Shown here one piece after another: positions 7,491 through 8,012 of a stretch of 64,000 nt of DNA. Numbering within the stretch: position 1 is the stretch's first letter; every line of letters begins with the position of its first letter. The notes under the pieces were generated by a model, which saw only the letters and a program-made list of their open reading frames with translations, was not told the origin of the DNA and ran no database searches. Source of the DNA: Escherichia phage WPEC4. A program made the position numbers and the translations under genes. The DNA lies in the sequence record PV682947.1. One strand, 5' to 3'.

Positions 7491-8012
7491 TTGCTGATAA
7501 AAAACTTTGTAACAGTTGCGTTACTATCCTTAACTGCTTTTACATTTACACCTGTTGTGGCGAAAGCCGAAGCTGCAAACGTAAAAACCGCTAAAGTAGT
7601 TCACAAATGTACAAAGCAATATAATGATAAAATTCTATTAGCTTGTGCAATTTACGCAGAAGGTCGAGGTCTGGGTAAAAAAGGAATGAATGCCGTTGGG
7701 AATGTGGTAATCAATAGAAGAAATGATGCCTACTTTCCTAACACAGTCAGAGGAGTCTTGTTCCAGAAAGGACAATTCTCATATGCGAAAACTTTTAACG
7801 TGACAGAGAAAGATAAGTGGCAAGAAGCAAAAGCAATAGCGGAGCGTTTACTTTATTTAGAGAAACATTTTCCTGAATTGCGATCTGTTTTAGATGTTAC
7901 TAAAGGTGCTCTATACTTCAAGAAACGGAATATAAGGACACACTGGGAACGCGATATGCGTCTTGTTTATCGAGATAAAGTGCATGGTTTCTATCTACCA
8001 AAGGGGAGTTAA
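7491..8012 (+). CDS. SleB-type cell-wall hydrolase with N-terminal signal peptide; candidate secreted endolysin (173 aa)
   Basis: TTG start after AGGAGG; signal-like N-terminus MLIKNFVTVALLSLTAFTFTPVVAKA; YAEGRG..GMNAVGNVVINRR..FPNTVRGVLFQKGQFSY resembles the SleB/Hydrolase_2 core. Confidence 0.65.
   Translation: MLIKNFVTVALLSLTAFTFTPVVAKAEAANVKTAKVVHKCTKQYNDKILLACAIYAEGRGLGKKGMNAVGNVVINRRNDAYFPNTVRGVLFQKGQFSYAKTFNVTEKDKWQEAKAIAERLLYLEKHFPELRSVLDVTKGALYFKKRNIRTHWERDMRLVYRDKVHGFYLPKGS

Follow-up and report, generated by a model that had tools for sequence, protein, structure and literature searches.

The locus described here lies in a 64,000-nucleotide stretch of Escherichia phage WPEC4 (sequence record PV682947.1), the whole of which is hereafter called the window, and comprises the gene for a small, putatively exported peptidoglycan hydrolase with a Hydrolase_2 domain, a short intergenic region carrying its expression signals and, 49 kb away, a pair of spanin genes beside the terminase. 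An initial annotation, made from the letters alone, had placed a SleB-type lysin in this open reading frame (ORF) and described the lysis genes as scattered; the coordinates of the ORF were right, and the 49-kb separation is found in a reference genome as well. Positions 6500-9500 of the window were 100 % identical by megablast to Escherichia phages WPEC1, WPEC2 and WPEC6, and about 98 % identical to many Phapecoctavirus genomes, including the RefSeq genome Mt1B1_P17. The source of the window is a phAPEC8-like myophage (Phapecoctavirus, Stephanstirmvirinae). The features of the lysis genes and of the candidate holins are shown in Table 1.

Table 1 Lysis-related genes, expression signals and candidate holins of the phage
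Feature	Position	Strand	Remarks
GC-rich stem-loop GAGGGGGAGAAATCCCCCTC	7410..7429	+	Between the TerD-domain gene and the lysin gene
Sigma70-like promoter (predicted)	7430..7458	+	-35 TTGCAA, 17-nt spacer, TG-extended -10 TATACT; 9/12 consensus plus TG
Shine-Dalgarno sequence AAGGAGG	7478..7484	+	6 nt before the TTG start
Hydrolase_2 (SleB/CwlJ-type catalytic domain) peptidoglycan hydrolase	7491..8012	+	TTG start, 173 aa, pI about 10
Signal peptide (predicted)	7491..7574	+	Residues 1 to 26-28; predicted signal peptidase I cut AKA/EA or AEA/AN
Codon of Glu57, presumed catalytic glutamate	7659..7661	+	Motif YAEGRG, aligned to SleB YGESRGE
Small membrane protein, 86 aa	33128..33388	-	Baseplate operon; phrog_1322 'membrane protein', E 2.9e-26
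o-spanin (Rz1-like) lipoprotein, 114 aa	56617..56961	-	phrog_1267, E 8.7e-21; lipobox LMMTG/CSS
i-spanin (Rz-like), 130 aa	56852..57244	-	phrog_4297, E 3.4e-35; N-terminal transmembrane domain at residues 7-25, Kyte-Doolittle 2.57
C-terminally anchored peptide, 39 aa	58070..58189	+	phrog_10979; early region
Hydrophobic peptide, 34 aa	59722..59826	+	phrog_14631; 11/12 promoter match at 59642-59669
Hydrophobic peptide, 44 aa	61710..61844	+	phrog_16005 and phrog_9845; early region; directly 3' of the 94-aa secreted protein 61424..61708
T4 gpe-type lysozyme homologue, 166 aa	WPEC1 18966-19466 = Mt1B1_P17 118858-119358		Outside the window; PF00959, without signal

The Hydrolase_2 enzyme and its export signal

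The 173-aa product passes the Pfam Hydrolase_2 model (PF07486) with 64.3 bits against a cut-off of 27 (E 1.8e-17, residues 62-168) and matches phrog_938 'endolysin' in a PHROG search, and dozens of GenBank records label the same coding sequence (CDS) as a cell wall hydrolase or an endolysin. The fold family was assigned by profile-to-PDB matching. The single sequence matched the SleB catalytic domains (PDB 4F55 and 4FET) over residues 44-98 at 1e-7, and a profile built from 58 diverse homologues matched them over the full domain with an E value of 4e-23. Two residues, Glu57 of the YAEGRG motif and Arg76, are invariant across those 58 homologues. In the 4F55 alignment Glu57 pairs with the first glutamate in YGESRGE of SleB, the catalytic residue of that enzyme, and is accordingly the presumed catalytic residue here. 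Cys40 and Cys52, both in the mature part of the protein, are invariant among 18 closer orthologues and are consistent with a periplasmic disulfide.

The SleB equivalog (NCBIfam TIGR02869) was not reached (52.4 bits against a cut-off of 236.5), and a SleB-type N-terminal peptidoglycan-binding domain was not found, Hydrolase_2 being the sole Pfam domain of the protein and residues 29-61 forming a short linker. By score and domain content the enzyme is SleB-like and not SleB itself. Relatives with the Hydrolase_2 domain were found in 1222 phage records, T5-like phages included. The homologue of phage CB7 was toxic upon expression in E. coli, data not shown there (PMC7344957), and was not among the 26 proteins detected in the CB7 virion (PMC7344957, Table 4). 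Inside the window the enzyme is, as had been claimed, the only recognisable peptidoglycan hydrolase: in the baseplate, hub, spike and tape-measure proteins Pfam recognised no further muralytic domain, and tblastn of the window with T4 E-type and lambda R-type lysozymes gave no match. The claim fails for the phage as a whole, which encodes a T4 gpe-type lysozyme outside the window.

The N-terminus has the layout of a cleavable signal, as the initial annotation had proposed, with an n-region MLIK, an h-region FVTVALLSLTAFTFT, a helix-breaking Pro21 and a c-region VVAKAEA, all read directly from the sequence. Among the 18 orthologues (59-99 % identity) the linker preceding the conserved block ANVKTAKVVHKC varies in both sequence and length, and small residues at -3 and -1 are retained in 18 of 18 (AKA, AEA, ALA, GQA, VYA and others). 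A linker that varies while -3 and -1 are always small is the signature of a signal peptidase I site and is not expected for a signal-anchor-release (SAR) anchor. The hydrophobic segment itself, FVTVALLSLTAFTFTPVVA, is 19 residues long with a Kyte-Doolittle value of 1.67 and 42 % Gly, Ala, Ser or Thr, and is followed by the conserved cleavage motif; there is no Cys in the N-terminal segment. In the wider family an N-terminal hydrophobic signal was present in 130 of the 150 best 50 %-identity cluster representatives, so that a signal joined to Hydrolase_2 is what is normally found in small proteins of this kind from proteobacteria and phages.

Expression signals upstream of the hydrolase gene

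The 98-nt gap 5' of the hydrolase ORF holds a stem-loop, a sigma70-like promoter and a Shine-Dalgarno sequence. The stem-loop, whose G5/C5 stem is kept in four Stephanstirmvirinae including the genus Justusliebigvirus, may act as a weak terminator or as an RNA-stability element. In diverged relatives the -35 element of the promoter is invariant and the -10 element reads TATACT or TACAAT, with T1, A2 and T6 kept. The GGAGG core and the TTG start are common to the window, Mt1B1_P17, phiWec181 and PHB05, and all four elements (stem-loop, promoter, Shine-Dalgarno sequence and TTG) are kept in phiWec181 and in the Justusliebigvirus PHB05, even though the PHB05 protein is just 75 % identical. The hydrolase gene looks to be separately controlled and not highly expressed.

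In the rV5-like phage magaca the homologue (1495..1995 of the compared sequence) begins with GTG and immediately follows a canonical intrinsic terminator. It shares 4 nt with the start of rIIA and is thereby physically linked to a gene that has historically been associated with the control of lysis. The TTG start was also considered as a sign of deliberately low expression and was down-weighted, since TTG starts 6 of the 104 annotated CDS (6 %) in the collinear region of the reference genome, where non-ATG starts make up 18 %. T4-type late promoters (TATAAATA) were likewise set aside as a timing marker; there were 8 hits in all, a number that 19 of 100 shuffles also reached, and the hits had no link to the lysis genes.

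Spanins, second lysozyme and arrangement of the window

The Rz/Rz1 pair that the initial annotation had placed beside the terminase was borne out by the PHROG matches, the transmembrane domain (TMD) and the lipobox given in Table 1, and lies immediately upstream of the terminase large subunit gene. The i-spanin combines its TMD with a coiled-coil periplasmic domain, which gives weak Pfam matches of the coiled-coil type, and the o-spanin has a lipobox and an outer-membrane sorting residue, as is typical of a two-component spanin. The two genes are of the 'overlapped' type, the o-spanin gene sharing 110 nt with the 3' end of its partner. The spanins of phAPEC8 are already in the published spanin catalogue (PMC6139136).

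Coordinates were referred to the genome of Mt1B1_P17, chosen since WPEC1 could not be mapped as a single collinear block. Window positions 2782-57520 correspond to Mt1B1_P17 39111-93619 in one collinear block, window positions 1-2782 are the reverse complement of the Mt1B1_P17 tRNA cluster, normally located after the spanin region, and window positions 57521-64000 are the reverse complement of the left end of Mt1B1_P17 (6794-1). Because WPEC1 (161 kb) combines these pieces, 100 % identical in sequence, into another mosaic, and because no repeats were seen when they were sought at the rearrangement junctions of the window, the rearrangement relative to Mt1B1_P17 is probably an assembly artefact of the source record. 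The 49-kb distance between the lysin gene and the spanin genes is also present in Mt1B1_P17 (43823 against 92716) and is real, since both loci fall within the collinear block. Ten tRNA genes (Met, Arg, Ser, Asn, Thr, Gly, Gln, Pro, Ile and Met) are clustered at window 274..2199.

Phapecoctavirus has been said to encode two lytic proteins (PMC10793346), and a T4 gpe homologue was found outside the window. Residues 7-165 of this lysozyme align to residues 3-161 of T4 lysozyme (E about 1e-48, PDB T4L), the protein is intact with the E/D/T motif region, and its gene is flanked by a thioredoxin-like gene and phoH. Its best PDB match is 7RGR, 'Artificial protein L056' (E 1e-71), with the first 70 or so residues identical, and RefSeq mislabels the gene as 'baseplate hub + tail lysozyme'. 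Since this homologue is encoded elsewhere in the genome, the exported enzyme is not the sole lysin of the phage. A cytoplasmic lysozyme of the T4 gpe type needs a holin, so the earlier suggestion of a single signal-bearing lysin, and hence possibly of holin-independent lysis, is not supported. Of the conventional holin-endolysin pair that might have lain outside the window, the endolysin is there, not paired with a holin.

Search for a holin

No ORF flanking the hydrolase gene has a TMD, and no recognisable holin lies beside the hydrolase or the spanins, in agreement with the initial annotation; nor is any holin annotated anywhere in Mt1B1_P17 or WPEC1. Annotators of related phages likewise found no obvious holin (PMC6658697; PMC7344957). 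When the window and the complete reference genome were scanned for hydrophobicity, about a dozen small membrane proteins emerged, which had no holin family match in PHROGs, Pfam or NCBIfam, and the only hint of a holin was a sub-threshold match to the LydA family (E 0.022) for a 74-aa protein outside the window. Further two-TMD candidates in Mt1B1_P17 are gp047, gp082, gp165, gp200 and gp262/263. For a T-type holin, with a single TMD and a large periplasmic domain, there was no family match among the selected small hydrophobic proteins of the reference genome.

All four membrane proteins that had been put forward as candidate holins exist and belong to conserved PHROGs, and the 86-aa product of the baseplate operon is the best candidate among them, unproven as yet. 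It is preferred because it alone combines a place in a late operon, two hydrophobic segments and a charged C-terminal tail (KNLIDLRWGRSQSTKEDD); its core is conserved. The gene overlaps both of its late neighbours, one Baseplate_J-like and the other NCTSP-like (sheath/baseplate TIM-barrel), and conserved copies of the protein occur in 371 phage records, spanning both Stephanstirmvirinae and Vequintavirinae. In the rV5-like phage Murica the homologue lies between tail-fibre genes, downstream of a gp38-like chaperone. The gene is 25 kb from the Hydrolase_2 gene in both window and Mt1B1_P17 coordinates, and 50 kb from the T4 E-like gene in those of Mt1B1_P17. A dual-start (antiholin/holin) motif was considered for the 86-aa protein and rejected, as most homologues start at the position of residue 8 and the N-terminal extension is not conserved. 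One homologue carries the precomputed Pfam tag PF10841, which hmmscan failed to confirm.

The other three candidates, the peptides at 58070, 59722 and 61710, are unlikely to be holins, because they are products of early-region genes and adjoin the spanins only through the rearrangement of the window; in Mt1B1_P17 coordinates they are about 86 kb from the spanins. Their surroundings (57600..62300) are an array of tiny ORFs, each behind a strong near-consensus promoter of the sigma70 type (TTGACA/TGnTAnnnT). Repeats of 35-65 bp are common to promoter regions of this array (57633/60735 and 58858/60460), and the 94-aa secreted protein encoded there carries the signal MKKMIAVVALVVGLNAPVLA.

Neighbouring genes

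Upstream of the lysin gene lie a 'tellurite resistance' gene (2830..3891) and a TerD-domain gene (6790..7392; PF02342, E 1.5e-28), and in the reference genome a TerC-like membrane protein with nine TMDs and a lipoprotein precede the Ter genes; the group is a phage-borne Ter-type stress cluster. Downstream, after three small ORFs and before the primase/helicase genes, four consecutive glycosyltransferase genes occupy 8714..11858. Upstream of the 86-aa gene, a 687-aa protein (33381..35444, minus strand) matches the TIM-barrel and N-terminal domains of a 'non-contractile tail sheath protein' (E 9e-79) and also has a Calx-beta domain, although the phage has a contractile tail.

The terminase large subunit (54532..56607, minus strand) holds a 159-aa in-frame insertion at residues 43-201 (56005..56481, minus strand), which splits the Walker A motif, the junctions reading GAAG before CVSAETEYLTKDGW and, at the far end, HCFVTGN before SGKS. 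The insertion starts with Cys and ends with Asn followed by Ser, the signature of a mini-intein. It had no match to a Pfam intein family, and Terminase_6N begins at residue 202.

Interpretation of the lysis genes

The interpretation favoured here, tentatively and with slightly less than even confidence, is a T4-style dispersed lysis system in which the exported, signal peptidase-cleaved Hydrolase_2 enzyme serves as an accessory lysin. The small, basic enzyme would be exported by the Sec pathway, its signal peptide most likely being cut by signal peptidase I at residues 26-28, and the mature form would be untethered in the periplasm, where its level is probably modest and a disulfide between Cys40 and Cys52 probably stabilises it. 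It would wait there and would aid wall breakdown once a holin collapses the membrane potential, in the manner proposed for the secreted Lys44 of phage fOg44; the cytoplasmic T4 gpe-type lysozyme would be released by the holin, and the overlapped i-spanin and o-spanin would break the outer membrane last.

Several points weigh against this interpretation. The signal peptide was called by rule-based inspection of the sequence only, and the literature on it is in conflict, the CB7 homologue having been described as carrying a signal peptide (PMC7344957) and an O177-phage study of this very 173-aa protein having detected no signal peptides (PMC10698182). The AlphaFold2 model from the alignment of 18 orthologues is poor, with a mean predicted local distance difference test (pLDDT) score of 59.6, so that support for the fold comes from sequence profiles. 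The promoter matches the consensus at only 9 of 12 positions. An enzyme fully active on export from an early promoter should lyse the cell prematurely, and some control must therefore exist. As to the candidate holin, only one of its two hydrophobic segments exceeds the Kyte-Doolittle threshold, the second being weaker, the 86-aa protein has no holin-family match in Pfam, NCBIfam or PHROG, and the CPT annotators of rV5-like phages label its homologue simply 'membrane protein'. Other authors have nominated non-homologous holin candidates, namely rV5 ORF129, of which no homologue was found in the window or in Mt1B1_P17, and CB7_82 (PMC7344957).

A doubtful but serious alternative is that the exported enzyme has a role in the periplasm earlier in infection that is not lysis, such as remodelling or loosening of the sacculus, interference with division or anti-superinfection, and that terminal lysis is left to the T4 E-type lysozyme, a holin and the spanins only. 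The gene is located in the replication and host-takeover block and not in the late block, its host-type promoter is kept across genera, the overlap in magaca is with the start of a gene that is early in T4, and the gene is retained where a complete canonical endolysin exists as well as in T5-like phages. Such a role is, however, undocumented for any Hydrolase_2 phage protein in the papers found, and the CB7 homologue was toxic when expressed, as a lysin would be. The harmlessness of an early-made lysin would be explained if the N-terminal segment were an uncleaved SAR domain, holding the enzyme tethered and inactive in the inner membrane until that membrane is depolarised by a pinholin, a part for which the 86-aa protein might qualify. 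The length, moderate hydrophobicity, Gly/Ala/Ser/Thr content and good conservation of the segment would suit this, and the first hydrophobic segment of the 86-aa protein is likewise weakly hydrophobic. It nevertheless appears unlikely: Pro21 followed by small -3 and -1 residues in every orthologue is a signal peptidase I signature that is absent from SAR domains, the lack of Cys makes disulfide caging of the P1 Lyz type impossible, no pinholin gene is adjacent (there being no TMD-containing ORF in the flanks), and most bacterial family members have plain cleavable-looking signals.

It is improbable that the role of principal endolysin falls to the exported SleB-type enzyme and that lysis is in effect independent of a holin. 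The export signal, the 'endolysin' label in GenBank and the lack of a recognisable holin in the whole reference genome speak for it, but holins commonly go unrecognised, so that their apparent lack is not evidence of absence; the genome retains an intact, signal-less T4 gpe homologue that would be useless without a holin, and where experts annotated the sister group, the name endolysin went to the soluble lysozyme and not to the SleB-like protein. A virion-associated entry lysin, which the initial annotation had named among the outcomes that would overturn its own view, is very improbable. Entry lysins are common among phages and the tail and baseplate genes of the window encode no other muralytic domain, but a Sec signal peptide would route the protein to the periplasm, away from virion assembly in the cytoplasm, the gene lies outside the structural module, and the absence of the CB7 homologue from the virion mass-spectrometry list argues against a part in entry.

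A broader proposal, more speculative than the accessory-lysin interpretation and rather unlikely as it stands, is that in all rV5-like and phAPEC8-like phages a low dose of Sec-secreted Hydrolase_2 made from a host-type promoter would act before the holin or independently of it, pre-weakening or remodelling the sacculus or providing back-up lysis, and that a swappable soluble endolysin and a non-canonical holin from the tail/baseplate operon (phrog_1322) would carry out the timed burst. If true, this would amount to lysis by two lysins in two compartments, a strategy as yet undescribed in Gram-negative phages. The layout as a whole is already known: it has been reported for Vequintavirinae, the sister subfamily, the lysin gene carries its annotation in GenBank, and T4 is the paradigm of dispersed lysis genes. 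Which protein serves as holin, and why an exported Hydrolase_2 enzyme is kept beside a canonical endolysin, matter mainly for lysis timing and for the choice of enzybiotics, and these coliphages are in wide therapeutic use.

Comparison with known systems

The enzyme shares the catalytic domain fold family and the conserved Glu of Bacillus SleB (PDB 4F55 and 4FET), but it has no N-terminal binding domain, scores far below the equivalog cut-off, and its substrate cannot be spore cortex. Like the SAR endolysins P1 Lyz and phage 21 R, it is a small muralytic protein whose N-terminal hydrophobic segment would allow export without a holin; it differs from them in its conserved site of the signal peptidase I type, a segment without Cys and the lack of an adjacent pinholin. 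Lys44 of the Oenococcus phage fOg44 is reportedly a secreted endolysin with a cleaved Sec signal peptide, for which the holin is proposed to act as the trigger by collapsing the membrane potential. A cleavable-looking signal peptide and export that does not depend on a holin are common to Lys44 and the enzyme described here, whereas the present phage has a Gram-negative host, a lysin of another catalytic family and a cytoplasmic endolysin besides, and cleavage and latency of its exported enzyme are predicted.

In phage T4 the genes for endolysin (e), holin (t) and spanins (pseT.3/pseT.2) are dispersed in a large myovirus genome, as are the lysis genes here, which include a true gpe homologue. 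The T4 gene t follows gene 38, and the small membrane protein gene within the tail cluster of the present phage recalls that position. The spanin genes are separated in T4 and overlapped here, no homologue of the T holin was found here, and T4 is not known to have an exported Hydrolase_2 enzyme.

The closest likeness is to the Vequintavirinae (rV5, LL12, PVP-SE1/BME3 and the Certrevirus CB7; PMC7344957, PMC6658697, PMC3606486, PMC12210895), in which a SleB-like Hydrolase_2 protein with a signal peptide, reported in every genus, is encoded in the replication/regulatory module, as it is here. Also shared are a spanin pair beside the terminase large subunit gene, the lack of a lysis cassette, a second soluble endolysin elsewhere, a holin that has not been positively identified and a homologue of the 86-aa protein in the tail module. 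The spanin genes are overlapped here and arranged end to start in CB7 and LL12; a two-TMD ORF overlaps the SleB-like gene in Certrevirus and rIIA adjoins it in magaca, neither of which is the case here. PVP-SE1 and BME3 are reported to encode a lysozyme in addition to the SleB-like hydrolase (PMC12210895). The soluble endolysin is of the T4 E type in the present phage and of the lambda R type in the rV5-like LL12 (against 1AM7, E 3e-56), where the CPT annotators gave the name endolysin to the lambda R-type gene and not to the SleB-like gene. The soluble endolysin has therefore been swapped between the lineages, and the retention of the exported enzyme while its soluble partner was exchanged argues for a conserved accessory role and not for that of the principal endolysin.

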